A stretch of 32,000 nucleotides of DNA from an uncultured Opitutales bacterium (GTDB taxonomy: Bacteria > Verrucomicrobiota > Verrucomicrobiia > Opitutales > Intestinicryptomonadaceae): contig CAKUIA010000017.1 of assembly GCA_934660865.1 (NCBI GenBank), positions 30,001 through 62,000 on the forward strand. Reading direction: 5' to 3'. The notes below the pieces were generated by a model, which saw nothing but the letters and a program-made list of their open reading frames with translations, was not told the origin of the DNA and did not search any database. Below are positions 3,426 through 30,316 of the stretch, one piece after another (positions within the stretch are counted from its first letter, which is position 1; each line of letters begins with the position of its first letter). Both the position numbers and the translations under genes were made by a program.

Positions 3426-3442
3426 AGAATGCTTAAATTTTT

Positions 3443-4330: not shown

Positions 4331-4339
4331 AAGCATTTT

Positions 4340-5383: not shown

Positions 5384-5415
5384 TTTTTTTAACGTAGCTT
5401 TTATTAAGCGCCAAC

Positions 5416-5443
5416 AAGGCAAATTTTTATATAAATTTGCCTT
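5416..5443 (+). terminator. Perfect 11-bp inverted repeat hairpin downstream of the acyltransferase gene
   Basis: AAGGCAAATTT-ttatat-AAATTTGCCTT lies 33 nt after the stop at 5383. No clean T-run follows (TATAATCC), so it could be a terminator or an operator-like palindrome. It marks the left edge of the AT-rich islet. Confidence 0.35.
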
Positions 5444-5621
5444 TATAATCCATAAAAACAATTCCTTTTCAAAAGACAGGCTTTTTGAGACACATAACAG
5501 CATATAAATATCTCATTGATTTATAGTATATTACAAAAATTAAAACTAAAGCCTTGTTTGTCGCACAAGGTATATTATGTCTACTTGCATAACATAGGTT
5601 GACTTTCTATAAAAGATTTCT

Positions 5622-6272: not shown

Positions 6273-6285
6273 TCTTAAAATTATT

Positions 6286-6621
6286 ATGAAAAACATCGTT
6301 TCAGTCTTGTTTTTTAGTTTAGTTGCGATGGCATTGTGTGCGGCAATGCCGAATACCGTTGCCCATTCCGATAAATTGAATGCGGATACTAAAGTTATAG
6401 ATATACAACTTGATAAAGAAAATGCGGTAAAAATTGCGGAAACCGTGTTATGCCATATTTACGGGAATAAAGTCTTATATCAAAAGCCGTGGCGCGTCGA
6501 GGAAAGCAAAGAATCTTATATCATCAAAGGGCAATTACCTTCCAATACGCTTGGGGGTACGGCAATGGTAGAGATATCAAAGAAAACCGGTCAAGTTCTG
6601 AATTATTCCCACGGCAAATGA
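6286..6621 (+). CDS. NTF2-fold immunity protein-like small exported protein
   Basis: 111 aa with a signal peptide (MKNIVSVLFFSLVAMALCAA). 'ENAVKIAETVLCHIYGNKVLYQKPWRVEESKESYIIKGQLPSNTLGGTAMVEISKKTGQVLNYSHGK' follows the pattern I remember for Imm-NTF2 proteins (A-x-x-IAE...IYG...KP...W-x-V/I-x-G-x-LP...GG...EI-x-K-x-x-G-x-(V/I)L...HGK). Confidence 0.5.
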   Translation: MKNIVSVLFFSLVAMALCAAMPNTVAHSDKLNADTKVIDIQLDKENAVKIAETVLCHIYGNKVLYQKPWRVEESKESYIIKGQLPSNTLGGTAMVEISKKTGQVLNYSHGK

Positions 6622-6736
6622 GATTAACAAAATTTTGTTTATGCAATATAATTTTGGCGATATTTCGCCGTGGCGTTTCATCTTAACCCAACAAATCTTC
6701 AAATATGAAATACACTAAAGACTTAAGTATACGGAT

Positions 6737-7126
6737 ATGAAAAACTATATAAATAAAATTTTGGCACTGGCCCTATTTTTTCTTTTGCATGTCAATGCCT
6801 TCGCAGAAAATATTGAAAACGGCATTTGTGTTTCATACAAGGTTGTACAAGCCCGGGAAATTGAAACAACTTTTTTTAAAGATTCATCAAATGCAAAGCC
6901 AATGCCGAACGATTTGTATGTAATTGGTTATATCCGCCAAAATATACCTGTAAAATACGATGTGTCGTGCACGTTATATTTTTACAACCCCGGACAACGC
7001 GGCTTAAAGAGAATTGCAAAAATCGGTTGGATTGGCACGGGCAAATTCTTTTTATTGCAACTGGGCAGCAAGGATATTTATAGCAAAGATTTGCAATACG
7101 AAATAAAAATTGACATGCGAAAATAA
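6737..7126 (+). CDS. Hypothetical exported protein
   Basis: 129 aa with signal peptide 'ILALALFFLLHVNAFA-EN'. No recognised motif. Lies in the AT-rich islet. Confidence 0.45.
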   Translation: MKNYINKILALALFFLLHVNAFAENIENGICVSYKVVQAREIETTFFKDSSNAKPMPNDLYVIGYIRQNIPVKYDVSCTLYFYNPGQRGLKRIAKIGWIGTGKFFLLQLGSKDIYSKDLQYEIKIDMRK

Positions 7127-7186
7127 TTGGACAAGGCGATTTTTTTGAAAGACTGTTTGCAATACTAAGCATAACATAAAATAGCC

Positions 7187-7567
7187 ATGAAATTTATAAA
7201 ATATATAACAGTTATTTTGCTGATATTGGTTTTTATGTTATGCGCAATTAACCATTTGGTATTTAAAATAGGATACGGTATTCCGGGCGGTGAAATAGAT
7301 TTTGTAGGGCTTACAAAAATCGACGCTATAAAAAAGCTTCAGGAAAAGAAAATTGGAGATTTAATATTAATATTTGTAGGCGGCTATAAAGGAAGAAGTT
7401 ATAAAAATATAAACGAAGTTGAAAAAGACCCGTATATAATACAGTCGAAGATTTTGGGTGTAAACTGTAAACAAGCGGGCAATGTCAATTATATGCAAAT
7501 TCTTTTTTTTGATGAAACAGAACGCGTATATAAACAAAAAATTAGCTATTCATTTGACGGGCCGTAG
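7187..7567 (+). CDS. Hypothetical N-terminally membrane-anchored small protein
   Basis: 126 aa with N-terminal TM/signal anchor 'YITVILLILVFMLCAINHLVF'. No recognised motif. It is the last gene of the AT-rich islet. Confidence 0.45.
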   Translation: MKFIKYITVILLILVFMLCAINHLVFKIGYGIPGGEIDFVGLTKIDAIKKLQEKKIGDLILIFVGGYKGRSYKNINEVEKDPYIIQSKILGVNCKQAGNVNYMQILFFDETERVYKQKISYSFDGP

Positions 7568-7799
7568 CTTGCATTTTTAATATACTTACAATTAAAATGT
7601 TATGAAAACAAAAAAATTAGATATGCAGTTTCATATGGCAATTCGCTGTTTTCTAGATTAAACTTTTCGCGGCCGTTTGGTTTTGTGTTGTTAACAGATA
7701 AATGGCTTGTGTTCGGGCGGCGTATTTTACGCAAACGCAACAAAAGTTCTCTGTATTTTGATAAAGCCCTACCCTTATTTTTTCGGGTGTTTTGTGGGG

Positions 7800-9338
7800 T
7801 TAGTGTTTGTGGAGTTTTTGCTTTATTTGTTGCATGAGGGCGGATTTTTCGGATTTGGTTAGGCCGAATGCAAATATTGCAAACAAAACCAAAATTTCGG
7901 TAGATGCCGTATCGAACACGAATTTTGCAAAAGCAAAATCTATGCGCACAAAGTTTATCAAAATTTCCGAAAATGCCGTTGCAAACGCGCAAACGGCAAA
8001 AATTCTGGCGGCAACCTCGGTTATGTAGGCCGATATGCTTATGTTATACGCCTTTTTTGCCATAACAATTCTTGAAAGCGCAACAAGCGATATCATTGCC
8101 ACCAAAACAAAATATACATAACTTGGGCTAAAGCCGCATTTTAGGAATACATACGAAATCGGAATGTTTAAGCTATTGATTATAAACAGGATAATTTCGT
8201 AGGTCTTAATGTTGCCCTCCGCAAACAAGCCTATTGCAAACGGCCACGAAACCGTGTCTATTATTATCGAAATCGCCAGCAAAACCACAAACGAATTTGT
8301 GTAGGCCGGATACTCACCAAGCCATAAGTACAGGAAATAATCGGCCCTTGCAATTATGGGGAAAGCCAATGTGGCCATCAAAAAAAACGAGAATTTGGAG
8401 CTTAAAAAAACGGTTTTTTGCATTGCGGGCAAATTTTTGTCGGCATACAGTTTTGTTATTTGCGGCTGGGCCGACACTAAAAAGGTATTTACAAAGCTTG
8501 CAAGCGTAGATGATATTTGAACCGAAATGCCCCTTGCCGCGTTTACCGCATTGCCGAAAAACAGGTTCAGCATTATGTTAAGCCCCTGGTCTCTGATAAT
8601 CGATGCGCCGTTGCCCAAAAATGCCCAGCCGGTGAAAATTCCCATATTTTTCAATATGCCGAAATCTACCTCAAAACGCTGTTTGTATTGCCCGAACTTA
8701 AATTTTACAAATACCGAGCACAAAGCCAAAACCGCGACTATGACAAGGGTATTTAGCGTTGCAAACAGCGGCAGTTTGTCGAAGTCCGCAAACAGCAGGC
8801 AGACTGCCACAAGCAGCTTGCAAAGGGCTTCGAACACCCCTTTAAAGGCGTAAAACGACATTTTTTCGTAGGCTATTATTATTGCGTCGAAAGGAACGTA
8901 TAACATTCGCAACGCAAAGCTTATGCAGGCGCAAAGCAGCACATAAATTGCGGTTTCAACCCTGTCGTGGGCAATAACCATTTTGTTGCATATAAACCAA
9001 TAGCCGCCCGCAAAGGCCAAAATGCACAAAATTGCACCCAAAAAGGCCTGCATAAACAATGCGGTAGAAAACAGTTTTTGGATTTTTGCGACGTTGTTTT
9101 TGCCCAATTCGTAGGTGATAAATCTGCTAATCGAAACGGGTATTGCCCCCGTAACAATTTCGAACATTGCAACAACGCCGTATACTACATTGTATATGCC
9201 GAAATCCTCTACACCAAGCTGTTTAAGAACAACCCTTGTAGAGAAAAACCCGACAAAAACGCAAAATATTTGCCTTAAAAACAAATATAAAGTGTTTTTT
9301 AAAAGCCTTTTCTTCGACGCAACGTAAGCCATCTGCAA
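7800..9338 (-). CDS. wzx: Polysaccharide/O-antigen flippase, MOP superfamily (Wzx-like)
   Basis: 512 aa with ~14 TM helices. The N-terminus 'LLKNTLYLFLRQIFCVFVGFFSTRVVLKQLGVEDFGIYNVVYGVV' is typical of Wzx/polysaccharide biosynthesis proteins. It is the last gene of the minus-strand glycan operon. Confidence 0.75.
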   Translation of the reverse strand: MQMAYVASKKRLLKNTLYLFLRQIFCVFVGFFSTRVVLKQLGVEDFGIYNVVYGVVAMFEIVTGAIPVSISRFITYELGKNNVAKIQKLFSTALFMQAFLGAILCILAFAGGYWFICNKMVIAHDRVETAIYVLLCACISFALRMLYVPFDAIIIAYEKMSFYAFKGVFEALCKLLVAVCLLFADFDKLPLFATLNTLVIVAVLALCSVFVKFKFGQYKQRFEVDFGILKNMGIFTGWAFLGNGASIIRDQGLNIMLNLFFGNAVNAARGISVQISSTLASFVNTFLVSAQPQITKLYADKNLPAMQKTVFLSSKFSFFLMATLAFPIIARADYFLYLWLGEYPAYTNSFVVLLAISIIIDTVSWPFAIGLFAEGNIKTYEIILFIINSLNIPISYVFLKCGFSPSYVYFVLVAMISLVALSRIVMAKKAYNISISAYITEVAARIFAVCAFATAFSEILINFVRIDFAFAKFVFDTASTEILVLFAIFAFGLTKSEKSALMQQIKQKLHKH

Positions 9339-11791: not shown

Positions 11792-13111
11792 TTGTATTAT
11801 ATGATGAATTTAAAACGTTTTTTGTATATTGTGCCGCTTTGTGCGTTTTCGCTTTGCGCTTATGCCGAAAAAACTTTGCCAAACGGCGATGTTGTGAATT
11901 TGCACCCGCGGGTAAAGGACGAATACCTTGAGCAAGACGCCCCTTTGAAAATGCTTTTGGACGAAACCGAAAACAATCGCTGGAGGCAAACCCGCATACA
12001 AATTCCCGACGGAACCGTTCACTACACCGGCTACTACAGCAAAAACCACTGGGGGCCTAAAAACGACTATTTTGTGTGCCTAATAAGGCGCAAGGGTTTG
12101 CCGCGCGGGGCTTCGGTTTTGTGCAAATATGTGTTAAAAGAAAGGGCGTTGCGCGAGCTTTGCATAATAAGGGGCGAGGCAACCTACGACCACACGCGCA
12201 ACATAGTGTGGGGGCTTCAGGGCAACAGGTTTTACAAGATAGACCTTAACAAACCCGTAAGCCCCACCGAATTTGCGCCCGAATACATATTCCAAGACTC
12301 GATGAAAAATTCGTATCTATACGGGCCTTTGGAAATAGACGAAAAGCGCGGTTTGGCGTTTTTCGGGATAGGCGTTGAAGACAAGGCAAAAAAGGAGGCG
12401 GCCAACGCCCTTGTTAAGGAGAAAAAAGACCCCCGCTTGGAATACATAGGCGAGCGCTCCTTTATGGTGTTGGACATAAACACGGGCAAGCTTTTAAAGC
12501 GTATCCCCATGGGCGGCAACTTTCATGCAAATCACTGGATAGCAATGCCCGACGGCGAAAACATTGTTTTTGCGCACGAGGGCATAACCGACACCATTGC
12601 CGACCGCATAAACATGATAAACTGGAAAACGGGCGAAAAGAAATGCCTGCATAGCCATATAATAGACAAAAAATCGGGCAGAATGCTCGAGTGCATTGGC
12701 CACGAAATGCGCGGCGGCGACTATATTAACGCGGTAAGGTATGCGCAGTCGGAATTGGGCAGCGCCATTGTAAGAGTAAAAAAAGACGGTTCCGACTACC
12801 ACATTGCCGACTACGACAGCTATTGGCATTCTTCCACAAACCCCGACACCGGCGAAATTATAGTTGCCGATACAATGTGGTGGGGCAAACACAATGTGCG
12901 CAACAAAAAGAAGGACCACGGCTACATAATAAGGCTTGATATGAAAAACGGCACAAAGGAAATCCTTAAGGAGATAAAAATTAACGCGCAAAACGGTTCA
13001 AACCACCCCCACCCTTCGCTTAACGGCGACGGCACAAAAGTTCTCTTTAGCGAACCTGCCGACGACAAATACGAAAACAATTCGCTAACTTTGCTTGAAT
13101 TGGTAAAATAG
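11792..13111 (+). CDS. Exported oligogalacturonate lyase (PL22)-like beta-propeller protein, paralog 1
   Basis: 439 aa with signal peptide (NLKRFLYIVPLCAFSLCAYA-EK). 'FAHEGITDTIADRINMINWKTG' and the C-terminal 'NHPHPSLNGDGTKVLFSE' parallel the Ogl-family motifs as I remember them ('HEGPHDLVDARMWLIN.DG', 'HPHPSF..D.K.ILFTS'). Alternative starts are at 11801 and 11804. Confidence 0.6.
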   Translation: MYYMMNLKRFLYIVPLCAFSLCAYAEKTLPNGDVVNLHPRVKDEYLEQDAPLKMLLDETENNRWRQTRIQIPDGTVHYTGYYSKNHWGPKNDYFVCLIRRKGLPRGASVLCKYVLKERALRELCIIRGEATYDHTRNIVWGLQGNRFYKIDLNKPVSPTEFAPEYIFQDSMKNSYLYGPLEIDEKRGLAFFGIGVEDKAKKEAANALVKEKKDPRLEYIGERSFMVLDINTGKLLKRIPMGGNFHANHWIAMPDGENIVFAHEGITDTIADRINMINWKTGEKKCLHSHIIDKKSGRMLECIGHEMRGGDYINAVRYAQSELGSAIVRVKKDGSDYHIADYDSYWHSSTNPDTGEIIVADTMWWGKHNVRNKKKDHGYIIRLDMKNGTKEILKEIKINAQNGSNHPHPSLNGDGTKVLFSEPADDKYENNSLTLLELVK

Positions 13112-13124
13112 GAGGAATTTTATT

Positions 13125-14339
13125 ATGAAGATTGCATTTTCGATTATGCTGACGCTGCTGGCCTGCAGCCTCTTTGCCGCCGACAACAAACCAAAATATA
13201 AGGACGAAGCCCCGCAACCCGACGTATACAAGGAGGTAAAACGCAACTGGAGGCAGCACACATTGCAGCTTGAAGGCCGCCATGTGATGCGCGCGTATTA
13301 TACGCACAATTCCTTCGGCAAAGACAATAAAACCGTAGTGTGCTATTCGCACGACAAAAATTTCGGCGACCCGCGCATTCATATATACGATATAGCACAG
13401 GGCAAATTCGTAAAAGAGGTTAAACTCGACAAAATGTTTTCGGGGCAAAACCGCACATTGGGCGCAATCTATTGCGCCTCGCAAAACAGCGTGTATTTAA
13501 CGCACCGCAATAAAATATACAAAGTTAACCTAAACGACGGCAAAACATCGGTGTTTTTCGAACACCCGATAAAAACCGCGGCGCTCCATAGCGGCGACAT
13601 AAACAGAGCCGAAACTTTAATGGTTATGGGCGTGTATGCAAACAATCCCGACAAAAAGGAGCAATACAGCTATCTGGGTTTTTGCGTGATAGACCTAAAA
13701 ACGGGAAAGGCCGTAAAAGACGTCGGTATGGGCAACTACCGTTTTGTTGCAAACCACTACCAGTTTATGGACGACAACCCCGACCATATAATGTATGCGC
13801 ACGAGGGCGAAACTTCTACAATTCCCGACCGCATAAACCGCATAAATTGGAAAACGGGCTGGCACAAGATTTTGCACAACCACTATCTGGACAAAAACAA
13901 CGGCTCGCTTATAGAGTGCATTGGCCACGAAATGACTGGCGGCAACAAGATTGTGGCCGTAAGGTACTCGGTTAGCAAAATCCCCGGGGCTTTGGTTGCT
14001 ATGAATACCGACGGCAGCGACTACAAGGTTATAGACTACGACAACTATTGGCACTGCTCGATAAACGCCGACGGCACCGTTTATGCCGCCGACACCATGT
14101 GGTGGGGCAACACCAAGCGCGTTTCCGGCGACGTAAAAAACCCGAAAACCTGGGTGATTTTGCTCGATTCAAAAAGCAAGACAAAGGAAATTATAAAGTC
14201 GTTTAGGGGCGAAAACAAACACAACTACTACCATTCGCACCCCGCAGTAAGTAGCGATGGGCGCCTTGTATATTTTACCGAAGGCGGCGGCGAATTTGTA
14301 AAGGCCACCCTCTTCGAATTGCTCGACAAATCGCTTTAA
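13125..14339 (+). CDS. Exported oligogalacturonate lyase (PL22)-like beta-propeller protein, paralog 2
   Basis: 404 aa with a signal or lipoprotein-like N-terminus (MKIAFSIMLTLLACSLFA). 'YAHEGETSTIPDRINRINWKTG', 'ECIGHEMTGG', 'ADTMWWG' and 'YHSHPAVSSDGRLVYFTE' align block-for-block with the upstream gene. Confidence 0.6.
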   Translation: MKIAFSIMLTLLACSLFAADNKPKYKDEAPQPDVYKEVKRNWRQHTLQLEGRHVMRAYYTHNSFGKDNKTVVCYSHDKNFGDPRIHIYDIAQGKFVKEVKLDKMFSGQNRTLGAIYCASQNSVYLTHRNKIYKVNLNDGKTSVFFEHPIKTAALHSGDINRAETLMVMGVYANNPDKKEQYSYLGFCVIDLKTGKAVKDVGMGNYRFVANHYQFMDDNPDHIMYAHEGETSTIPDRINRINWKTGWHKILHNHYLDKNNGSLIECIGHEMTGGNKIVAVRYSVSKIPGALVAMNTDGSDYKVIDYDNYWHCSINADGTVYAADTMWWGNTKRVSGDVKNPKTWVILLDSKSKTKEIIKSFRGENKHNYYHSHPAVSSDGRLVYFTEGGGEFVKATLFELLDKSL

Positions 14340-20487: not shown

Positions 20488-20976
20488 CTATTCTTTTGCG
20501 GAGGCTTTTTCGGGCAAAATAACCTTCGCTTTTGCCGAAAATTCCACATAGCCGCATACATGCGAATTGCCCGAAATTTCGCTTGTTGTTTTTGTGTCGT
20601 ACAAATTGCTGTAGTACTGCGTGCTTTGCGTTGCGTTTTCGGCGTTTTCGTTGGCGCAGGCCGAGCTTGCATAAAACATTGCAATGCTTGTAAGCATAAG
20701 CGAAAACACGGCGGCCCACTCCAGCGCAACCTGCTTTGGGTTTTCCTTTTTTGCCTTTTCGGGCAAAACCCCCTCTACAGGCAGCGGCGCAAACTTTGGT
20801 TTTTTTCCGTATATTTTGCACGACGCCATATATATTCGGCAATTTTCGTAAAATATGTTGGCAAATTCGGGGTTTTCCCTTATCGCCGACACCAAAAGGC
20901 GAAGCTCCTCGCAGGTAGCTTCGCCGTCTAGGTAAGAGCTTACAATCTCCTGAAACCTGTTTTTAGAAAGCGCCAT
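20488..20976 (-). CDS. Single-pass anti-sigma factor (cognate to the upstream ECF sigma)
   Basis: 162 aa, starting 2 nt after the sigma gene stop. The N-terminus 'IVSSYLDGEATCEELRLLVSAIRENPEF' looks like an anti-sigma N-domain. One TM helix (VALEWAAVFSLMLTSIAMFYA) is followed by a short extracytoplasmic tail. Confidence 0.55.
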   Translation of the reverse strand: MALSKNRFQEIVSSYLDGEATCEELRLLVSAIRENPEFANIFYENCRIYMASCKIYGKKPKFAPLPVEGVLPEKAKKENPKQVALEWAAVFSLMLTSIAMFYASSACANENAENATQSTQYYSNLYDTKTTSEISGNSHVCGYVEFSAKAKVILPEKASAKE

Positions 20977-20978
20977 TC

Positions 20979-21557
20979 CTATTTTTCGGCGTTAAGCTTT
21001 TCCCTTAAAAAGTCTCTTGCGCGCGACAATCTGCTTTTTACGGTGCCAACCCCTATGTTCAGTTTTTCGGCAATCTCTTCGTACGAAAGGTCGTCTTCGT
21101 TCCTAAGTTTTAAAACCTGGGCGTAAATTTCGGGCATTTGCGCCATTGCCCTGGGCAAAAACTCTTCAAGCTCGTTGGTAATGTTGGCCTCGCTGGGAGT
21201 TTGCATTTCGCATTTAATAACATCGCCAAAGGTTATGCTTGCGCCATCGTCGCCCAAAACGGGCTCTTCAAACGAAACGCTTGCGTGCCTTTTTCTGCGC
21301 CACCAATACCAGCTTTTATTTTTGGCCAAATTAGTGGCAATGCGGTACAGCCAGGTAGACAAAGCGCAGTCGCCCCTAAAATTCGAGATTGAATTTCGGG
21401 CTTTAATAAAGGTGTCTTGGGCAACTTCCTCGGCGTCCTGCCTGTTGTTTAGTATTTTGTTTGCCTGATTTAACACCATAGCGTAGTTGTCCGAAACAAG
21501 CTTTCCGAAAGCCTTTTCGTCTCCGCAACGCAATTTAGTAAGTACTGTATCTTCCAT
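20979..21557 (-). CDS. ECF-type RNA polymerase sigma-70 family factor
   Basis: 192 aa. Region 2 reads 'DAEEVAQDTFIKA...STWLYRIATNLAKN'. The region 4 HTH reads 'LSYEEIAEKLNIGVGTVKSRLSRAR'. Confidence 0.85.
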   Translation of the reverse strand: MEDTVLTKLRCGDEKAFGKLVSDNYAMVLNQANKILNNRQDAEEVAQDTFIKARNSISNFRGDCALSTWLYRIATNLAKNKSWYWWRRKRHASVSFEEPVLGDDGASITFGDVIKCEMQTPSEANITNELEEFLPRAMAQMPEIYAQVLKLRNEDDLSYEEIAEKLNIGVGTVKSRLSRARDFLREKLNAEK

Positions 21558-21713
21558 ATATCTTTGTTATGCGGTTATCATAGCACTTAAGCTGACAACC
21601 CGTCAATAGTTTTTGGACAATTTATTTTCGTATTTGTTCGAAATAATTTGCGTTTTCTATTGTAATTAATCTCTCAAATAGTTTAAATTGCTTCGAAATA
21701 TATCGCATGTAGT
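21558..21713. promoter_or_regulatory. Divergent promoter region between the ECF sigma gene and the GTPase operon
   Basis: 156-nt AT-rich intergenic spacer between divergently oriented start codons. I could not assign specific -35/-10 boxes by eye. Confidence 0.4.
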
Positions 21714-23453
21714 ATGAAATTTTTTGGAAACTCAAAGAAATCAATCGGAAGAAAAGCCGTTTTGTTAAACTGCATAAACGGGCAAATTTCGCAGGCGGAC
21801 GAATTTCCCGCAAAAATAGGCGATTCGGAAAATTGCGCGCTAAAGGCAAACGAAGTGTTCGAAGCCCTGGAGCTTTCCTGCGGGCAATCGGAGGGCTTTA
21901 CATTAGGCAGGTGCTCCGACGACAGCGTTCTTATAAATTCAAAAGTTCCCGAAACCGAAACGGTTGTGGAAAACGGCGAATGTACAATACAGTTTTCAAA
22001 CGGCCTGTATATGCTATTTTGCGGCGAAAACGCCCTTAAAAAAGCGCAAAACATAGATTTGTCGCGCTGGTTTTTGTTCGACGCAATAAACGGCCGAATA
22101 GAAGACGAAGTTCCCTTTGTTTCGCTTAAAAACTCGGTTGTAAAGCGCGGGCTAACGGGCGCAGGCTTGGCCATAGCCCCCAAGGGGGCCGATTTGGGCT
22201 TTTTCTATTCGCAGGTATTTAACGAAGGCAGCGCCGATGTAGCTTTAGACGTTGCCCCCGTTTCGTACAACTCGCATGCGATAACCTGCCCCATGTGCTA
22301 TTTAAGCTTCGACATAGGCGACGCGCTAAGCATAGCCTCGCACGAAAGCCTTAGGGGCGACACCGTTTTAGGCCCCGACGAAATGCTTAGGTTTTTACCC
22401 GTTTCGTTCAACGAGCACGGCATTGCCCTAGACCCTATGGGGCTGCCCGCCCCCGACATTGCGTGTCCGCACTGCCGCAAAAAACTGCCGTCGGGCTTTT
22501 TGGATTTAGACGCAAAAATATTTTCGATTGTAGGCGCGCCAAGTTCGGGCAAGTCGTATTATTTAAGCGTGCTTATTAAAGAGCTTAAAGACGTTTTGGC
22601 CCAGCGTTTCGGCGTAAGCTTTAAAGACCTAGACCCTAGCGGCAATATGATGCTTACATTGATGAAAAACAAGCTCTTTTCGGCCACAACAAGCACCGAC
22701 GCAATACTGGCAAAGACTGCTTTTGAAGGCGCAATGTACGAAAAATACCCGCGCTTCGGCAAAATGGTGGCTTTGCCAAAACCGCTAACCTACTCTATTT
22801 CAAACGAAAAGATTTCCGACAAAGCCCTTGTGTTCTACGACAATGCAGGCGAGCATTTCGAGCCCGGCATAGATTTGGAGGACTCGCCGGGGGCAATGCA
22901 CGTTGCAAGCAGCGCCGCAATATTCTTTCTTTTCGACCCGGCCTCGAACAGGGGCTTTAAGGAAAAGCTGCGCGACCACCCCGACCCACAGCTTAAAATC
23001 AAGGGCCGCGTAGACCAGCAAGACACCATTATGTCGGAAATGGAAGTTCGCATTAAGCGAATTTCGGGAATGGAATCGGCCGCAAAAATAAAGAAGCCGC
23101 TTGCCGTTATAATAAACAAATTCGACATTTACAAAGACCTTTTAGACGGGCCTTTGCAAGACTACTATAAAGACGGTGCGCTGGACCTTTCGGCGGTAAA
23201 AAACAACAGCGATAAGATAAGAAAATTTATGATGGCAACCGAGCCTTCAATAGTGTCTACCGCCGAGTCGCTTTCCGAAAACACAATGTTCTTTGCCGTA
23301 AGCCCGCTTGGGCATACCCCCATAAAGATAGAAAGCGGCGAATGCGCGGGCATGATTGCCCCCGACATAGAAAAGCTAAACCCGATGTATGTGGAAGTTC
23401 CCACAATTTGGGCGATAAGCCAAACAATAGACGGGCTAATTAAAACCGTATAG
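21714..23453 (+). CDS. Multidomain TRAFAC-type P-loop GTPase with an N-terminal beta-rich module, a GYF-like segment and a split CPxC...CPxC zinc ribbon
   Basis: 579 aa. G1 is 'GAPSSGKS' (nt 22533-22556), G3 is 'FYDNAGE' (DxxG, nt 22839-22853) and G4 is 'IINKFD' (NKxD, nt 23115-23126). 'CPMC' (nt 22287-22298) and 'CPHC' (nt 22464-22475) lie ~55 aa apart, directly upstream of G1. Confidence 0.75.
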   Translation: MKFFGNSKKSIGRKAVLLNCINGQISQADEFPAKIGDSENCALKANEVFEALELSCGQSEGFTLGRCSDDSVLINSKVPETETVVENGECTIQFSNGLYMLFCGENALKKAQNIDLSRWFLFDAINGRIEDEVPFVSLKNSVVKRGLTGAGLAIAPKGADLGFFYSQVFNEGSADVALDVAPVSYNSHAITCPMCYLSFDIGDALSIASHESLRGDTVLGPDEMLRFLPVSFNEHGIALDPMGLPAPDIACPHCRKKLPSGFLDLDAKIFSIVGAPSSGKSYYLSVLIKELKDVLAQRFGVSFKDLDPSGNMMLTLMKNKLFSATTSTDAILAKTAFEGAMYEKYPRFGKMVALPKPLTYSISNEKISDKALVFYDNAGEHFEPGIDLEDSPGAMHVASSAAIFFLFDPASNRGFKEKLRDHPDPQLKIKGRVDQQDTIMSEMEVRIKRISGMESAAKIKKPLAVIINKFDIYKDLLDGPLQDYYKDGALDLSAVKNNSDKIRKFMMATEPSIVSTAESLSENTMFFAVSPLGHTPIKIESGECAGMIAPDIEKLNPMYVEVPTIWAISQTIDGLIKTV

Positions 23454-23462
23454 GGCAAAACA

Positions 23463-24767
23463 ATGGCATACGAATTGATTTACACAAGTTTGCCCTCGGG
23501 CATTATGGCGGGTCGCTCGGGCTTTTGCGTTGCAGCCTACACCGAAAATATGCCCGAAAGGCTGGTTTTAATGGTCGAAAAATTCAGCAATTTCGACCAT
23601 TGCGGCATTTCCGAAAAATATTCGCTAAACAAGCTTTGCCATTCCAATATAGACTATTATGTGCTAACGCGTTCGGCCGATTGCGGCAAAGACTATACGG
23701 GGCGCACAAACTTCATTTCGCACCATTTGGTTTTGTCGGCAAACGAAATCGCAAAATATCCGAACCCAGCCGACATTCTTTTGCACTACAACTGGCTAAA
23801 TTCCTACACAAAAGCCCCGCAAAAAATAAAGGAGCCGCCCGATTTGTCGAAAATACCGTTCGAAAAGCACGTTCCCTGCAAAACTTGGGGCGAAATTTTT
23901 AAAGACGCAGGCGTTGCGGCTTTCCCCCGCATAAAGGACGATTGCGAAATATACGCTTCAAAGCAGTTCTCCCAAAAAACCATACTAAAGCTTTTTGCCG
24001 AATCTTTGGCGCTAACGGTAAACGGCAAATCGGCGTGGAGCTACACGTTTACAACGGCTTTGGGCTCAAGCGAGGTTGCGTTGTCGTATAAATGGAAAGT
24101 TTTCGCTAACCGTTCAAAAGATTCGAGAAACCCGAACGCCATAGATTTGGATTTGCAAAAAGCCCCCTCTTTTGCCGAATGCAGGCTAAGCGAATATGCA
24201 AGAAGCGGCGTTTTAACCAAAGCCGAAGCCCTGTCGCTTACCGCCGCAAAACCGAAAAAAGCCAACACCAAATTTACGGTTGTAAACACAAAGCCCGAAC
24301 GCACATTCCAGCCTATATATGTATATTCGGTTGTAATCGCCATATTGTGCTCGCTAATTGTTGTTTTGGCCTTTTCGCTGCTGGGCGGCAACAATGCCGA
24401 CGAATACGAAGACTACCCCGAATACGGCGGCGAATCTTTTGCGCAAATAGCAAAAAGGATAGACAACGCCATTGCCCGCAACGACTATTCTTCGGCCTCG
24501 GCAATTTGGTTCGGCTACGAAAACAGGGAAATCAGAAAAGACTACATATCCTTTGTAAATTCGAAAATAAGAAACTCGATAGCCGAAAACTTGCGGGATT
24601 TTGAAAACGCGCTAAATAGTTCCGACACTATAAGCCAAAAACAGGTAGAGAAAATGACAAAAGCGTGCTCAAACGCCGAAAAATACCTCGAAAAGAGCGA
24701 CTTTCCCGACAAAAAATCGCTTTTAAAACGCACAAAACGCCTGCTAGAGCAACTTTCGAAAGAATAA
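23463..24767 (+). CDS. Bitopic membrane protein with a GAP1-like (GTPase-associated protein 1-like) N-terminal domain
   Basis: 434 aa, starting 9 nt after the GTPase stop. 'MAYELIYTSLPSGIMAGRSGFCVAAYTENMP' resembles the YTS...G...GF-x-x-A-x-(S/T) N-terminal signature I remember for GAP1-N domains. One TM helix spans aa ~285-308 (nt ~24315-24386), with a basic flank before it and an acidic flank after it. The ~125-aa C-terminal tail is helical. Confidence 0.5.
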   Translation: MAYELIYTSLPSGIMAGRSGFCVAAYTENMPERLVLMVEKFSNFDHCGISEKYSLNKLCHSNIDYYVLTRSADCGKDYTGRTNFISHHLVLSANEIAKYPNPADILLHYNWLNSYTKAPQKIKEPPDLSKIPFEKHVPCKTWGEIFKDAGVAAFPRIKDDCEIYASKQFSQKTILKLFAESLALTVNGKSAWSYTFTTALGSSEVALSYKWKVFANRSKDSRNPNAIDLDLQKAPSFAECRLSEYARSGVLTKAEALSLTAAKPKKANTKFTVVNTKPERTFQPIYVYSVVIAILCSLIVVLAFSLLGGNNADEYEDYPEYGGESFAQIAKRIDNAIARNDYSSASAIWFGYENREIRKDYISFVNSKIRNSIAENLRDFENALNSSDTISQKQVEKMTKACSNAEKYLEKSDFPDKKSLLKRTKRLLEQLSKE

Positions 24768-24770
24768 TTT

Positions 24771-27518
24771 ATGAACTGCCAACTTTTAATAGTAAAAATA
24801 CAGTCGCTTTTAAACGGCAAAAGCATACCGAACGAAAGCGAAATAAAAAGCCTGTGCGACGAATACAACGCCGTGCGCAATATGTGCGCCGACAGGCTAC
24901 AGCGGTGCGTTGCCCTTATTCGCTCGAACAGGGACTATTTGGCCTTGCAGATTGCCGAAAGCGAACCGCCGGTTTTGGACACAATAAACCTGCTTGAATT
25001 TAAGGGCCTGCCCGAATGGCGCGCGCTGTGCGGCGAATACAACGCCGAATGTGCCCCCGATTTCGACGGATATTACATAGAGCTTTTGCAGTCGCTATAC
25101 ACAAAGGACATAGGTCAAAACCACCCTCTTTACAGAGACTACCGCAGGGCAATGCGCAGCCGCAACTACGACGACGCGCTTAAAATAATCAAGACAATTT
25201 CGCGCATAAATTCGAATAACAACGACATTAAAGCCGAATATGTGCGCCTGCTAAAAAGCCGGGTAAACGAAAAGCTGGCCGAAATAAAAACCGCCCTGCA
25301 AAACAACGACGCAGAGCGAGCCTTAAAGCTGTTCGCCTTTTTGGACGCAAACAGCTCGGAATTCGACACCGACAGCGACAGCTGGCGCGAAGTCTGCCAA
25401 AAAATCGGCGAGCTTAAACTTCAAAACGCAAAGGACGGCGCAAAAGACATTGTGCGCCGCCTAGGCGTGGTAGATGTGGAAAAAGACTACCGCGAGGCAA
25501 TCTCGCTTTTCAACGAATTAAAGCTGCTTGTGTCGGAATATCCCGACATAGTTTCGCAAGGCGATTTGGACAAAGCCGAAGCCCTGAAAAACAAAGCCTT
25601 TGTTTTGAAGGACGAACGCGAAAAAACGGAACTTTCCGCCAGGGCCAAAACGGCGGCGCTTTTGGCTTTCGAAAGCGATTCAAAAAAGGGCAAAACCCTT
25701 GCGCAAAGACTGGCAGACTTTACCGAATTGCAAAACAAATACGGCAAATATTTCGACGAAAATACGGCAAAAAAAGTTTCCCAAAAAGTTTCGTCTATAA
25801 AGCACGCCTTAAAGATAAAACGCCTTGCAAAGCTGGCGCTTGCGTGTTGTGCCCTTGCATTTTTGGCCGTTTGCGCCGCGCTTTGGCGCAATAACAGCGT
25901 AAAAAACGGGCGCGTAAATTCGGCAAAGTCCGAAATCTTAAAAATGCAAAATCTGCAAAGCATAGGCGAAATAAAAAATTCGCTTGCGTATTTCGGCAAA
26001 CAATATGCCGAATTTGCTCCTCAATTTGAAAGGGAAATTGCAAACGCCGAAAACACCCTGCAAATGCTCGAAAGCAGAAAGGCGAAGATAGAAAAATCGC
26101 TGGAAAGTTTGGGGAAAATTAAAGCCGACACCATAAATTCGAGCACTTTTAAGGCGGCTAACGCCGAATTTGCGGCTTTGGAAGAAAGCGCGCAAAAGCT
26201 TCCCCCGCTCGACGAAAGCGAAATCTCCGAAAAAATACAGGCCACAAAACGCCGCTTCGGCATTTTAATGGACACCGTAAAAAACTCTTTCGAAAGGGAA
26301 TTTTCGGCTGCGGCTAACGATGTAGAAAACTGCCTTTCGGCGGTTTCGAGCGACTACGGCAAAAGCTTCGAAAAATCGGTAGTCGAGTTGGGCGCGAAAG
26401 TAAAAACGCTAAAAGACATTGTTGAAAAATATTCTAGAATAGTGCCTTTGCACCCCCTAAACCAGACAAAATACAACGACTATATTTCGAAATATACCGC
26501 ATTTACCGTAAGGCTGCACGACATTAAAAACGCGGAAAACGCGATAAGCAACGCGCGTTCGCTGGACGAGTTTTATTCGGCCCTAACCCAGTTGTCGGCA
26601 ATAAACCCGCTGCCCGAGCGCTTTGCAAAAAACATAAAAATTGCCCAGTCGCAAAAAGAAAGCCTCCTTTACGGCGACTTGGCCGAAAAAATCGGAAAGA
26701 GCGCCTTTAAATGCGCAGGCAAAGAATTTTCCTTCGCCAAAATAGACCTCCTAAACGAATGGGAACAGCTATTCGACATATACGAATATGCCGATAAAGA
26801 CGGCAAAAAAGTGTATACAAGCAAAATCCTTAAGGAAAGAACCAACGAATGGCCCGGCGGCTACGAAATCATACAAACCGGGCGCCAGTTTTCGCGCGAC
26901 GGCTCGCTAAGGCACATATTGCGCCGCAAGCTTGTTTCGGGCGCGTACGTTAAGGTAAACGAGCTTCTTGCTGGCAAAACCCCCGCAAAGGAATCGCTAT
27001 TTTTGGCAAATTTGGCGCGCAAACGCCCCTCTTTGCCCGAAGCTTTAAACGCAATAGCAAATGCCGACATTAACGGTGCATTTAAAGCCTATCTCGAATA
27101 CTCGCTTTTTACCGCCCCGAATACCGACGACATTTCAAGCGGAACCGCATATTCCGAAAGCGCTATGGCGCGCAAACGCCTGGTACTCGAAAAAGCCGCC
27201 GACCTTGCTCCGCTTTCTTGGCTGTATGCCGACAAGGCCAAAGTAGACGACATTAACTTTGCCCTATATTCGCAAAAATCGCCCGACTACCTAAAGGAGG
27301 CAACCGAAACAAAAAACCTTGCAAAGACAATGCTCGAAAACCCGAAAATTTTTGTAGGCTATGCCGACGAGCTTTCGGTTGCGCATTTTTGCGGCGAAAA
27401 CAGCGGCACAATTTTCGGGATTTCGGCCGCAAACGGCAAAGTTGTTGTTATATACGAAAACGGCAAGCTGGTGGAAAAACCCGCAATATTTTCGCCCCTG
27501 CTAAAGGCGCATAAATGA
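24771..27518 (+). CDS. Large (915 aa) bitopic, predominantly alpha-helical protein of unknown function
   Basis: Starts 3 nt after the previous stop. It has a single TM helix (LAKLALACCALAFLAVCAALW, aa ~352-372, nt ~25824-25886). The composition is K/E/A/L-rich and coiled-coil-like on both sides of the TM. I see no catalytic motif. Confidence 0.6.
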   Translation: MNCQLLIVKIQSLLNGKSIPNESEIKSLCDEYNAVRNMCADRLQRCVALIRSNRDYLALQIAESEPPVLDTINLLEFKGLPEWRALCGEYNAECAPDFDGYYIELLQSLYTKDIGQNHPLYRDYRRAMRSRNYDDALKIIKTISRINSNNNDIKAEYVRLLKSRVNEKLAEIKTALQNNDAERALKLFAFLDANSSEFDTDSDSWREVCQKIGELKLQNAKDGAKDIVRRLGVVDVEKDYREAISLFNELKLLVSEYPDIVSQGDLDKAEALKNKAFVLKDEREKTELSARAKTAALLAFESDSKKGKTLAQRLADFTELQNKYGKYFDENTAKKVSQKVSSIKHALKIKRLAKLALACCALAFLAVCAALWRNNSVKNGRVNSAKSEILKMQNLQSIGEIKNSLAYFGKQYAEFAPQFEREIANAENTLQMLESRKAKIEKSLESLGKIKADTINSSTFKAANAEFAALEESAQKLPPLDESEISEKIQATKRRFGILMDTVKNSFEREFSAAANDVENCLSAVSSDYGKSFEKSVVELGAKVKTLKDIVEKYSRIVPLHPLNQTKYNDYISKYTAFTVRLHDIKNAENAISNARSLDEFYSALTQLSAINPLPERFAKNIKIAQSQKESLLYGDLAEKIGKSAFKCAGKEFSFAKIDLLNEWEQLFDIYEYADKDGKKVYTSKILKERTNEWPGGYEIIQTGRQFSRDGSLRHILRRKLVSGAYVKVNELLAGKTPAKESLFLANLARKRPSLPEALNAIANADINGAFKAYLEYSLFTAPNTDDISSGTAYSESAMARKRLVLEKAADLAPLSWLYADKAKVDDINFALYSQKSPDYLKEATETKNLAKTMLENPKIFVGYADELSVAHFCGENSGTIFGISAANGKVVVIYENGKLVEKPAIFSPLLKAHK

Positions 27519-27901
27519 AAAAATACAAAGTATATTGGAAAGGCCGCATTGTGGGCGAATACGGCCGCGCCGAAATTTTGGCTGCGCTAAACTACGGCAA
27601 GCTAGGCATGCTGCATTCGGTAGACTTGGGCAACGGCGAAATTGTGCCCATGCAAAGCTTTGTGGATTTGCAGCAAATTGCCGACAGCAAACCGCAAACT
27701 TCGCCTGCAGCGGTTTTGGCCGCCTATTTCCTTAGCGGATTGTGTTTTTTGGGCTGGCCGTTTTTGGCGGTTTTTGCGCCATACTGTTATTGGATATACC
27801 GCAAAGGGCAAAAAAAGGCGGCAGCCTACACTTTGGTTTTGTCGTTGGCGTTTTCGGTATTGGGCGCGCTTTTCTTTTATATAATGGGTAAACTCGGCTA
27901 A
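27515..27901 (+). CDS. Small membrane protein: GYF_2-like N-terminal domain plus two TM helices
   Basis: 128 aa. Its ATG overlaps the upstream stop (ATGA). 'YKVYWKGRIVGEYGRAEILAALNYGKLGMLHSVDLGNGEIVPMQSFVDL' follows the GYF_2/DUF4339-like pattern (aromatic...G-x-(Y/P)...E-I/L...G-x-L...V...G-x-x-W/V-x-P...F-x-x-L). Two hydrophobic helices follow. Confidence 0.5.
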   Translation: MKKYKVYWKGRIVGEYGRAEILAALNYGKLGMLHSVDLGNGEIVPMQSFVDLQQIADSKPQTSPAAVLAAYFLSGLCFLGWPFLAVFAPYCYWIYRKGQKKAAAYTLVLSLAFSVLGALFFYIMGKLG

Positions 27902-28005: not shown

Positions 28006-28569
28006 ATGAAAAAACTATACGCAGTTTCCTTAATGTTGGCGGCAATGTTTATGCTTTCGGCTTGCGAATCGTGGGACAACCCCTCGCCTTCCGATACTAA
28101 CGCAGCCATGGGTTCGGCCGACAAAAACGGCAACTTGCCCGACGGCTCGTACGGCGCCGACGCCGAAGGCCTTAAAGGTCGCGGCATTAACTCGCTAGAC
28201 GGTTTTGACCCCAACAACATCAATCCCGAAGATATCGTTTGCACGGTTTACTTCGGTTTCGACCAGTATGCAATTCCCGCCTCCGAAAGGGGCAAATTGA
28301 AGGAAGCGGCTCAATTCTATTCGGCCAACCCCAATGTTAAAACGGTTTTGGTAGGCCGCACCGACTGGTACGGCACCGAAGAATACAACCTTTTGCTTTC
28401 CGACAAAAGGGCTTCGGCTGTTAGCGAATATTTGGAAACAAACGGCGTAAACGCCGCCAATATGGAAAGACTTCCCGTAGGCGAAGCAAACGCAACCCCC
28501 GATGTCGATAAAAATTCGCCCCAGGCAAAGCAAGACCGCAGGGTTGAAATTGTAAAACTTACAAAATAA
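28006..28569 (+). CDS. pal: Peptidoglycan-associated lipoprotein, OmpA_C family (Pal-like)
   Basis: 187 aa. 'LAAMFMLSAC-ES' is a lipobox. OmpA_C blocks are 'VYFGFDQYAI', 'LVGRTDWYGTEEYNLLLSDKRASAV' and 'DRRVEIV'. No tol genes are adjacent, so the symbol is tentative. Confidence 0.75.
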   Translation: MKKLYAVSLMLAAMFMLSACESWDNPSPSDTNAAMGSADKNGNLPDGSYGADAEGLKGRGINSLDGFDPNNINPEDIVCTVYFGFDQYAIPASERGKLKEAAQFYSANPNVKTVLVGRTDWYGTEEYNLLLSDKRASAVSEYLETNGVNAANMERLPVGEANATPDVDKNSPQAKQDRRVEIVKLTK

Positions 28570-28720: not shown

Positions 28721-30316
28721 ATGAATCTTAAAAAATTCTGTATATATACCGCGGCGCTTTGCTCGGCTTTGTCGGCATTTGCGCTGGAAAACCTAATTCC
28801 CGAAACCCCGCAAAAAAATTCCATGAACACCTGGTGCACATGGGGTTCGCAAAGCAATGTTATAGGCCGATATAAAGACCGCATAAAAAGAGGCAAAACC
28901 GTGCCCGACTATGCGAAAGACATTACAAAAGTTTCGCAGCGCGACGGCATTAACGAGGAAACCGTTTTCGGCGAAAACGGCTGGGCAAAAAATTGGGGCG
29001 GTATTAGGAAAGACTGCTACTTTATTTTGGACGACGGCTGGGACGTTGGCTATTACGAAAGACCCGCAGTAAACATTTCGGTTTTCGGCTCGCACATATT
29101 AAACGAAACAAGGTTTCCCTCGGTTAAGGGAATGTCGCCGCAGGAAAGGCTAAAATGGCTAAACGACAAGCTTGTTGCCAACGGCTGGCTTGGCGGCGCG
29201 CTGTGGATTAGCGCGCAAAAATTCGGCGAAAACTACGGGCGCAACAAAATTAGCCCCGAAAACCAAATCGAATTTTGGAAAGAACGCATTGCCTGGAGCA
29301 AATACGCAAATATAAGGTATTGGAAAGTAGACTGGGGAATACACTGTCTTGATGTCGGCTTTAGGAAAATGCTTACAAAGCTTGCCGCAAAAGAGTTCCC
29401 CGAACTGATTATAGAAAACGCGTATCCCGCACTGCCGGCAAACTTTATAAACAACATACAATTCAAAGACGGTAAGTATTTCGGCGACGGCAAATTTGCC
29501 AATACTCCGCGCAAAGAGCTGGACAAGCTCGACGAAATTTTGGAGTTTTCCACCCTGTTTAGAACCTACGACACCTACGGCAATTCGGTTACCTTAGACC
29601 GTTGTGTATACGAGCTAAATTTCGGCTACGAAGAACAGCTTAATTTGTTTTTAACCTGCGAAGACAACCCCAAAATTGGAGCCGGCCTTGCAAGCTTTTG
29701 CGGCGAAATGAGGGCTATAGACCACAGGCGCGCGCGCGAATTTACGGCCTTTATCCACTGGCAAAGGATAGCGCCCGCCTTGGCGGCAAAAGATTTGCCG
29801 ATTAAAGTTTCAAACGAAAGGCTTAGCGAATTTAAAAAAGTAAGGAATTTGCCCGACGCTTTCAAAAAACGCACCGACCAAAGTTTGCCGCCCATCGAAC
29901 AAAGCGCTCCCGCGGTTATCGTAAGGGGCAATATGGATTTGCCCGAAGTTAAAGTTGCCCAAAAAGACGCCTTGCAACCCTACGTTTTGGCCACAAAACA
30001 CACCAACGCAACCTTGTGCGTGTCTTTTGTAGAGCGCGACGAAAACCGCAATTACCAGACAGACACATTTGTAAACGAAAACTGCCTAAACCGCAAAATA
30101 GGAGTGTTCGGGCAATTCAATACGCTTACTTTTACGCTGCCCGACAATACAAAAAACGTAAAAGTTTTTGTGCAGGATTTAACCGAAAAAACGCCCAAAG
30201 AAATTAAAAACTTTTCGGTAAACTACAATAAGCTTACAATAGGTTTCAACGACTTGGGCTTCGAAAAGCTTGCAAAAAAATATCCGGCATTCGTGCTTTT
30301 TGTAAAAAAAGGATAG
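28721..30316 (+). CDS. Exported glycoside hydrolase, clan GH-D-like (alpha-galactosidase-type TIM barrel)
   Basis: 531 aa with signal peptide (IYTAALCSALSAFA-LE). 'NTWCTWGSQ', 'CYFILDDGWD', 'NETRFPS' and 'IRYWKVDWG' parallel the GH27/GH36 blocks (WNSW, DDGW, rFP, YLK-x-D). The specific family is not resolved. Confidence 0.5.
   Translation: MNLKKFCIYTAALCSALSAFALENLIPETPQKNSMNTWCTWGSQSNVIGRYKDRIKRGKTVPDYAKDITKVSQRDGINEETVFGENGWAKNWGGIRKDCYFILDDGWDVGYYERPAVNISVFGSHILNETRFPSVKGMSPQERLKWLNDKLVANGWLGGALWISAQKFGENYGRNKISPENQIEFWKERIAWSKYANIRYWKVDWGIHCLDVGFRKMLTKLAAKEFPELIIENAYPALPANFINNIQFKDGKYFGDGKFANTPRKELDKLDEILEFSTLFRTYDTYGNSVTLDRCVYELNFGYEEQLNLFLTCEDNPKIGAGLASFCGEMRAIDHRRAREFTAFIHWQRIAPALAAKDLPIKVSNERLSEFKKVRNLPDAFKKRTDQSLPPIEQSAPAVIVRGNMDLPEVKVAQKDALQPYVLATKHTNATLCVSFVERDENRNYQTDTFVNENCLNRKIGVFGQFNTLTFTLPDNTKNVKVFVQDLTEKTPKEIKNFSVNYNKLTIGFNDLGFEKLAKKYPAFVLFVKKG

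Follow-up and report, generated by a model that had tools for sequence, protein, structure and literature searches.

A probable DO-GTPase2-type GTPase fused to FHA-fold and GYF_2-like domains in a conserved gene block of Opitutia

Kaur, Burroughs, Iyer, and Aravind (eLife 2020, PMC7159879) predicted a group of 'GTPase-centric' conflict systems, in which a TRAFAC GTPase is accompanied by a co-evolving GAP1 protein. GTPases of the DO-GTPase family contain a Walker B glutamate and often carry one or two N-terminal zinc ribbons, two being usual, and the name of the DO-GTPase2 family refers to paired GTPases (PMC7159879). Systems of the GAP1-N2 type were found in actinobacteria, firmicutes, planctomycetes, verrucomicrobia, and chloroflexi, and are usually located near the membrane (PMC7159879). 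Their typical partner is a protein with FNIII repeats, and two paralogous GTPase genes are present in 38% of them but are not obligatory (PMC7159879). Some GAP1-N2 systems are linked to kinases and PP2C, and some planctomycete systems include a protein with a GYF domain plus a transmembrane segment (PMC7159879). Here we describe a GTPase of 579 amino acids (aa) from an uncultured Opitutales bacterium that very probably belongs to this DO-GTPase2/GAP1-N2 kind. Its gene lies in a stretch of 32,000 nucleotides of contig CAKUIA010000017.1, referred to below as the window, and all positions are those of the window.

The gene is the sole long open reading frame (ORF) at its place (Table 1), and its start codon was backed by the aligned N-termini of homologues. 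A word-indexed search found more than 1300 homologues of the GTPase, an exhaustive profile search with it yielded 2082 cluster representatives at 50% identity, and the GTPase motif was carried by more than 583 species genomes. Because the homologues are so numerous and the ratio of nonsynonymous to synonymous substitution rates (dN/dS) is low against two near-conspecific genomes, the gene is, as far as sequence comparison can tell, clearly functional and not a chance ORF. The protein consists of an FHA fold, a GYF_2-like domain, a putative Cys4 metal module, and a TRAFAC GTPase domain with intact P-loop, DxxGE, and xKxD motifs, in this order. A preliminary description of the gene had given positions for its motifs, and a script together with the alignments showed that all of them are correct: G1 (GAPSSGKS) at residues 274-281, G3 (DNAGE) at 376-380, G4 (NKFD) at 468-471, CPMC at 192-195, and CPHC at 251-254. 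Across 64 relatives (26-43% identity), C192, C195, C251, C254, G274, G279, K280, G379, and K469 were invariant, and D376, E380, and D471 were nearly invariant. The family core runs from the first CPxC to the C-terminus (profile positions ~185-575), and the first 180 residues are an add-on found only in a subset of the family. A tblastn search of the window with the GTPase found only the gene itself and no paralogue. Pfam, NCBIfam, and PADLOC searches with the whole GTPase returned nothing beyond a sub-threshold DO-GTPase2 match, and no related solved structure was found by a profile search of PDB sequences.

The GTPase is co-transcribed with three membrane-anchored proteins: a GAP1-N2 protein with one transmembrane segment, a protein of 915 aa with one transmembrane segment, and a GYF_2-like protein with two transmembrane segments. 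The Pfam families of such systems are PF19993 (DO-GTPase2, gathering score 27 bits), PF20013 (GAP1-N2, cut-off 24 bits), and PF20014. The gene that follows the GTPase matched GAP1-N2 (PF20013) with an E-value of 2.9e-18 and 66.7 bits against the cut-off of 24, and the same family was matched by all six GAP1 orthologues examined. DO-GTPase2 was matched at E <= 1 by 34 out of 38 diverse relatives of the GTPase. Moreover, three relatives found with a profile built from the window protein scored above the PF19993 cut-off (P0123, 38.4 bits; P0211, 37.2 bits; P0217, 37.7 bits). The GTPase was therefore filed under DO-GTPase2, since it has the Walker B glutamate E380, its relatives pass the threshold, and its neighbor is a GAP1-N2 protein.

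Several points weigh against this assignment and against a conflict system of the published form. The window GTPase itself scored 21.3 bits against PF19993 (E 2.4e-4), which is below the 27-bit threshold. No FNIII domain was detected in the 915-aa protein and five of its orthologues by Pfam at E <= 1, a test at the sequence level. The window contains one GTPase gene, and the related loci have one copy per operon, not two. The region of the zinc ribbons, here the Cys4 region, was modelled at low confidence, with predicted local distance difference test scores (pLDDT) of 38-61. There is no enzymatic effector in the operon, and no PADLOC defence model matched any gene of the block. Finally, no experiment on the DO-GTPase/GAP1 family was found in the literature searched.

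The preliminary description had called the architecture unusual. That overstates the case, since it did not recognize the DO-GTPase2/GAP1-N2 family, which had already been published; the fusion of FHA and GYF_2 domains to the GTPase is, however, new. The individual domain calls of that description each withstood testing, and none was contradicted. Other arrangements occur among the relatives. P0165 has a TIR domain N-terminal to the same FHA-GYF-Zn-GTPase layout, P0204 has a C-terminal FGE-sulfatase fusion, P0239 has an N-terminal Ser/Thr kinase, and in P0229 GAP1-N2 and GAP1-M are fused in one polypeptide.

In the GTPase domain, G274, G279, K280, N311, T335, P357, D376, G379, E380, Q436, K469, D471, S530, and G533 were invariant or nearly so. 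The invariant T335 is a candidate for the switch-I threonine, and S530 and G533 form a G5-like motif. The Walker B glutamate E380 occurred in all 41 close relatives and in 62 of the 64 distant ones, K469 was invariant, and D471 was found in 63 of the 64. The fourth motif is where the preliminary description had put it, but the asparagine of NKFD is not conserved (glycine in 35 out of 41 close homologues), and thus the G4 motif of the family is xKxD. The G1-G3 spacing, described as about 95 aa, proved to be 95 residues between K280 and D376, with a family-wide range of 91-109. The G3-G4 spacing is also long (~92 residues), and both spacings exceed those of Ras. Extra elements lie between G1 and G3, where a strand and two helices were predicted, and between G3 and G4.

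The long spacing had led to a comparison with septin-, GIMAP-, or dynamin-type proteins. The spacing is real, but the likeness is generic, as other GTPases scored about equally. Foldseek matches of the G domain included atlastin, GBP1, EF-Tu/eEF1A, and G-alpha, with E-values of 4e-6 to 1e-4 and low template modelling (TM) scores. The predicted G domain thus stands among the TRAFAC GTPases and has no specific affinity within them. Still, the top PDB matches were atlastin-3, atlastin-1, and GBP1 (E 4e-6 to 5e-5), the G1-G3 spacing is long as in large GTPases, extra secondary structure lies between G1 and switch I as in atlastin, GBP1, and G-alpha, and all three partners are membrane proteins. 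These features would suit a membrane-remodelling GTPase of the dynamin/atlastin/GBP type that works mechanically on the inner membrane in concert with its anchored partners. However, the TM scores of these matches were only 0.39-0.41 on the target, and EF-Tu, eEF1A, and G-alpha scored about as well, so that the likeness is shared by TRAFAC GTPases in general. Furthermore, there is no stalk, helical bundle, or paddle after the G domain and no equivalent of the helical domain, the residue after DxxG is a glutamate instead of a glutamine, and no sequence relationship was detectable, the profile search of PDB sequences returning no dynamin-family relative. We rejected a dynamin or atlastin identity because the Foldseek matches are generic, and a membrane-remodelling role is very hard to credit.

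Upstream of the G domain, the four-cysteine pattern of the preliminary description is exact: CPMC and CPHC are separated by 55 residues, and the four cysteines were invariant in the 64 relatives. All 41 close relatives and 54 of the 64 distant ones have this spacing of 55 residues between the two knuckles, and D216, R226, and F227 within the 55-residue insert were invariant in all 64. Since the spacing is fixed, the alignments argue that the Cys4 region is one integral module of ~63 residues rather than a ribbon interrupted by a variable loop. Pfam searches with isolated segments gave weak zinc-finger knuckle matches only. Most members of the wider family have histidine or cysteine at four more positions (H194 in 41, H210 in 59, C246 in 52, and H255 in 44 of the 64 relatives), suggesting a second metal site beside the Cys4 site, which may correspond to the 'two ZnRs' of PMC7159879. 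In the Opitutales clade, the residues at positions 194, 210, 246, and 255 (window 22294-22478) are L/M, H, A/S, and R. As only H210 of the four is kept, this clade, including the window protein, appears to have lost the second site. One might also speculate that R226 is an arginine finger.

The N-terminal module had been described as beta-rich and FHA-like, with structure prediction and Foldseek named as the check, and both bore this out. The AlphaFold2 model of residues 1-178 had a pLDDT of 88.6 and a predicted TM score of 0.84. The best 50 Foldseek matches of this model in the PDB were all FHA domains, among them Rv0020c/FhaA, EmbR, GarA, Ki67, KIF13, and Rad53, with TM scores up to 0.76 and root-mean-square deviations of 2.2-2.5 Å over 92-98 columns. 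The model of the full-length GTPase recovered the same matches. The domain is thus an 11-strand beta-sandwich similar to FHA (PF00498) and to the cytoplasmic domain of YscD (PF16697). Pfam FHA did not match the window protein, either whole or as an isolated segment; it matched one of 31 close homologues (E 0.02) and 13 of 38 more distant relatives (best E 1e-5). In some distant relatives, canonical FHA motifs stand at the corresponding position (Pfam FHA E 1e-13 to 1e-17), and therefore the domain is a degenerate homologue of FHA rather than an unrelated fold that resembles it. No other part of the protein varies as much, the mean pairwise identity being 29% here as opposed to 78-79% in the zinc module and the G1-G3 region. 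The profile search of PDB sequences with the N-terminal region gave only sub-significant FHA matches. An antifreeze protein match in this search was driven by repeats and was rejected as false.

What this domain lacks, in contrast to canonical FHA domains, is the set of arginine, serine, and histidine residues that bind phosphothreonine. The preliminary description had found no SxxH, and this holds because residues 1-110 contain no histidine at all. The 'GR' motif is G36-D37 in the window protein, the clade has G, E, S, or D at position 37, and arginine was found there in 0 of 41 close homologues. The STNGT loop is absent, and of its 'NG' motif only N75 is kept. This N-G/S turn and the place of the domain as a membrane-proximal cytoplasmic module are shared with FHA and YscD-type scaffolds. 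YscD-type FHA-fold domains likewise lack the phosphothreonine-binding residues and work without phosphopeptides. A working phosphothreonine reader, through which the GTPase would be an output of Ser/Thr-kinase signalling, has in its favor that the FHA fold is confidently predicted, that relatives have a canonical FHA domain or a fused Ser/Thr kinase, and that some GAP1-N2 systems were published as linked to kinases and PP2C (PMC7159879). However, the binding arginine is replaced in the window protein and its clade, the SxxH and the STNGT loop are missing, and neither the genes of the window with a Pfam annotation nor the related loci examined include a kinase or phosphatase gene. A working phosphothreonine-binding FHA domain was rejected because the binding residues are absent, and signalling through such a reader is quite improbable.

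Residues 113-172 are GYF_2-like, a call with moderate support from four independent lines. First, in relative P0188 an FHA domain (residues 23-85) and a Pfam GYF_2 domain (113-162, E 2.1e-13, which passes the cut-off) precede the zinc module and the GTPase, an arrangement and placement that match those of the window protein. Second, the consensus of 38 diverse relatives shows the W...G...GP...L pattern, which in the wider family has the form W...G...GP....L....G. Third, hhalign aligned the profile of the segment with that of the GYF_2-like domain encoded by the fourth gene of the operon (probability 64%, P 6.7e-5, score 22.5, 22 core columns in correct register), and 60 column-shuffled controls scored 9.0 +/- 2.1 with a maximum of 14.7. 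These profiles were built by local iterative searches from 75 sequences of the segment and 53 of the fourth-gene domain, and the signal arose only after this profile building. Fourth, a Foldseek search against viral structures gave a weak match, over 57 columns, to a phage 'GYF domain 2' protein (probability 0.77, E 0.77). AlphaFold2 modelled the segment as beta-beta-alpha-beta-beta-alpha with pLDDT 89-98, which may correspond to the GYF fold (beta-beta-alpha-beta-beta with a short helix). W119, F122, E130, D131, G149, G151, P156, G162, and F163 are invariant in the clade.

The same segment differs from GYF_2 (PF14237), a bacterial relative of the GYF domain that binds proline-rich peptides, in that Val-Pro-Phe replaces the hallmark Gly-Pro-Phe in the Opitutales clade, and no proline-rich partner motif was identified. 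Pfam GYF_2 did not match the segment, the window protein, or 31 close homologues, and it matched two of 38 relatives at E 0.26. The hhalign comparison of the segment with six fourth-gene sequences failed (probability 0.8%), that of the N-terminal alignment with the single P0188 sequence gave no signal, and a large-database search with the 58-aa GYF_2 domain of P0188 gave zero matches. The preliminary call of a GYF_2-like pattern at residues 118-168 is thus moderately supported, although the string it quoted spans 118-169 and Pfam is silent on it. In P0188, P0182, and P0143, the FHA/GYF_2 region is joined to the zinc module by a long proline-rich linker, which could be a ligand of the GYF domain in cis. 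The linker of the window protein (residues 170-190) is not proline-rich.

Table 1. Features of the GTPase gene and its neighbors in the window; identity and dN/dS are those between the window and its two nearest, near-conspecific genomes (L007 and L008). ECF, extracytoplasmic function.
Feature	Position	Strand	Remark	Identity (%)	dN/dS
DO-GTPase2-type GTPase gene (probable), 579 aa	21714..23453	+	whole gene; soluble, no transmembrane segment	93-94	0.064-0.067
FHA-fold domain without phosphothreonine-binding residues, aa 12-112	21747..22049	+	AlphaFold2, Foldseek, alignments
Small beta-beta-alpha-beta-beta-alpha domain, GYF_2-like, aa 113-172	22050..22229	+	model, relatives, hhalign
Putative Cys4 metal-binding module, aa 189-262	22278..22499	+	alignments; low model confidence
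TRAFAC GTPase domain, aa 263-579	22500..23450	+	motifs, model, alignments
GAP1 protein	23463..24767	+	GAP1-N2 aa 1-129, middle region, transmembrane helix 290-308, helical C-terminal tail	83-84	0.14-0.16
915-aa third component	24771..27518	+	mostly helical conserved N-terminal region, transmembrane helix 352-370, C-terminal ~545 aa	79-80	0.14
128-aa fourth component	27515..27901	+	N-terminal GYF_2-like domain, transmembrane helices 66-84 and 107-125
ECF-type sigma factor	20979..21557	-	divergent, directly upstream of GTPase	97	0.044-0.048
Putative membrane anti-sigma factor	20488..20976	-	conserved N-terminal 'YLDGE' region, transmembrane helix 83-101, short extracytoplasmic tail
Divergent intergenic region, 156 bp	21558..21713	.	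presumed site of both promoters

Among the partners (Table 1), two of six GAP1 orthologues gave weak GAP1-M matches. The GAP1 orthologue at 9748-10671 of L003 has 307 aa and stops just past the transmembrane helix, without the helical C-terminal tail of ~120 residues. The 915-aa protein matches no Pfam family; its N-terminal 150 residues are strongly conserved, and its C-terminal part of ~545 aa is probably extracytoplasmic, since the N-side flank of the transmembrane helix is richer in Lys/Arg. A second GYF-like module had been suspected in the last gene of the operon. This was borne out by two of six orthologues matching Pfam GYF_2 (best E 0.003) and by 53 orthologues with the WKG..GP[FY] pattern.

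The term 'sigma factor' occurs zero times in PMC7159879, so a link to an ECF sigma factor is not mentioned there. No ECF-type promoter motif common across clades was found in the divergent intergenic region. A block of the form ACTATnGTGsTGACAT (approximate consensus) lies between the sigma factor and the GTPase in the freshwater clade (L030, L034, L038, L041, L044, L045, L048-L050, L057, and L061), and no equivalent of it was recognizable in the gut clade, including positions 21558-21713 of the window.

Downstream of the operon are genes for an OmpA/Pal-like lipoprotein (28006-28569) and for a protein of 531 aa (28721-30316), which has an N-terminus like a signal peptide and matches no Pfam family. 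The OmpA-like gene is probably not part of the system, because its position is shared only with the nearest relatives and L003. At the other end of the window, a polysaccharide synthesis cluster (272-5383) encodes a Wzy_C/O-antigen-ligase-like protein, GT10 and GT2 glycosyltransferases, a short-chain dehydrogenase/reductase, and an acyltransferase. The G+C content is lower after this cluster, 0.34-0.35 at 5001-8000 as compared with ~0.45 elsewhere. No Pfam family was matched at E <= 1e-5 by ORFs 7800-9338 (-), 11792-13111 (+), and 13125-14339 (+), which encode 404-512 aa.

At the protein level, the window is ~94% identical to an Opitutales metagenome-assembled genome (MAG) from the Hadza gut. 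Of the 80 best-matching species-level genomes that carry the gene, nearly all are labelled as Verrucomicrobiota, mostly Opitutia, and they come from gut, freshwater, and marine habitats. Identities are 53-65% in the gut clade and 41-45% in the freshwater clade. Two loci with GTPases that are 45-47% identical are labelled 'uncultured Klebsiella sp.' (L038) and 'uncultured Enterobacteriaceae bacterium' (L053) and come from 'binchicken'/co-assembly MAGs; since their gene order is Opitutae-like, these labels are probably binning or labelling errors. In 86 loci, GAP1 followed the GTPase in 84, the 915-aa protein was found in 71, the divergent sigma factor in 61, and the small GYF_2-like membrane protein in 52 (by hidden Markov model) plus the window; most absences coincided with contig ends or with the sensitivity limits of tblastn. 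The order of the six-gene block was constant in dozens of Opitutia species, and the flanking genes differed by locus.

No gene-wide positive selection was found in any gene compared between the window and L007/L008, and all were under purifying selection. The dN/dS of the three GTPase partners was 0.14-0.18. In these two genomes, the GTPase, the sigma factor, the OmpA-like protein, and the 531-aa protein were 93-99% identical to those of the window, as compared with 79-84% for GAP1 and the 915-aa protein. The dS of the 915-aa gene was 0.86 versus 0.25-0.6, a hint that this gene recombines or turns over faster. There were zero matches in 50,697 phage records and two weak matches elsewhere, both to Rhodococcus megaplasmids, and carriage by mobile elements was therefore rejected.

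A defence-type role is our tentative choice for the function of the block. It was proposed for such systems in PMC7159879, relatives of the GTPase are fused to TIR, FGE-sulfatase, kinase, or GAP1 domains, and the partners evolve faster than the GTPase. Close behind it is a lineage-specific housekeeping role in envelope-stress or homeostasis signalling, which is possible but a somewhat weaker candidate. Here, the membrane proteins would report the status of the envelope, and the ECF sigma/anti-sigma pair would be the output of the switch or its regulator. Across Opitutia of gut, freshwater, and marine origin the six genes keep their order but the flanks vary, the identities are tiered by clade as vertical descent would give, and every gene is under purifying selection. 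The partner set is constant and has no variable enzymatic effector, and the sigma/anti-sigma pair is linked to it. Moreover, the phage records and PADLOC gave nothing, and the chromosomal neighbors are ordinary (polysaccharide synthesis, RecD2, and the OmpA/Pal-like lipoprotein). On the other hand, fusions to TIR and FGE-sulfatase are typical of immune or conflict systems, and GAP1 and the 915-aa protein diverge 2-3 times faster than the GTPase, as would be expected for parts that contact invaders. The sigma linkage shows co-regulation at most and does not by itself connect the GTPase to signalling.

A bolder form of the housekeeping explanation is that the block of anti-sigma factor, ECF sigma factor, FHA-GYF-Zn-GTPase, GAP1-N2 protein, 915-aa protein, and small GYF_2-like membrane protein is a new transmembrane signalling pathway of Opitutia and not a defence system. 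The TRAFAC GTPase, with its phospho-independent FHA and GYF adaptors, would then relay an envelope signal from the membrane sensors to the ECF sigma factor. We consider this unlikely. If it were true, the six genes would represent a G-protein-like alternative to two-component and classical anti-sigma signalling.

Overall, the best explanation is that the GTPase is the cytoplasmic GTP-switch subunit of a GAP1-N2-type system in its Opitutia version, and we hold this to be fairly probable. How such a switch might be tethered to the membrane can be outlined with slightly less assurance, the interactions being inferred. The soluble GTPase would be held at the inner membrane by docking on the GAP1-N2 domain, which is cytoplasmic. 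A cue from the envelope or an invader would be sensed by GAP1 and the 915-aa protein, which evolve faster and have parts beyond the membrane, and this cue would alter the nucleotide state of the GTPase or the dimerization of its G domain, for which one GTPase copy is encoded. The degenerate FHA and GYF-like domains might serve as phospho-independent adaptors that assemble the complex, possibly by pairing with the GYF domain of the small membrane protein. Because that protein bears a second GYF_2-like domain, it may share a ligand with the GTPase or pair with it directly, and it is thus the best candidate for the output, although the output on the membrane could also be the 915-aa protein or both. 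Expression would be set by the ECF sigma/anti-sigma pair. Should this linkage prove functional, a GTPase switch would be tied to the transcriptional control of envelope stress.

The main value of the locus is that it offers a tractable minimal example of a widespread GTPase system known from prediction. The Opitutia version is a compact and invariant four-gene form without an enzymatic effector, and thus a clean entry point to GTPase-GAP1 function. At least one named isolate carries it (Puniceicoccaceae bacterium Marseille-Q1082, L009), as do common lineages of the human gut. Handles for mutagenesis are the degenerate FHA domain, the GYF_2-like domain, the Cys4 module with D216, R226, and F227, and the DNAGE motif.

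Compared with the published DO-GTPase2/GAP1-N2 systems, the window system is similar in its TRAFAC GTPase with a Walker B glutamate (DNAGE), its N-terminal cysteine module, and the GAP1-N2 gene directly downstream. Its partners are likewise anchored in the membrane, it occurs in verrucomicrobia, and the operon includes a protein with a GYF domain plus transmembrane segments. It differs in having a single GTPase gene, one Cys4 site instead of two zinc ribbons, and no tubulin, HSP70, or kinase theme. FHA and GYF_2-like domains fused to a DO-GTPase are not mentioned in PMC7159879, and the distribution in Opitutia is clade-wide and looks vertical rather than patchy. What is new in the Opitutia version is therefore the apparent loss of the second metal site, a partner without an FNIII domain that Pfam or sequence comparison can detect, the fusion of FHA and GYF_2-like domains to the GTPase, a fourth gene encoding a GYF_2-like protein with two transmembrane helices, and an ECF sigma/anti-sigma pair conserved alongside the operon.

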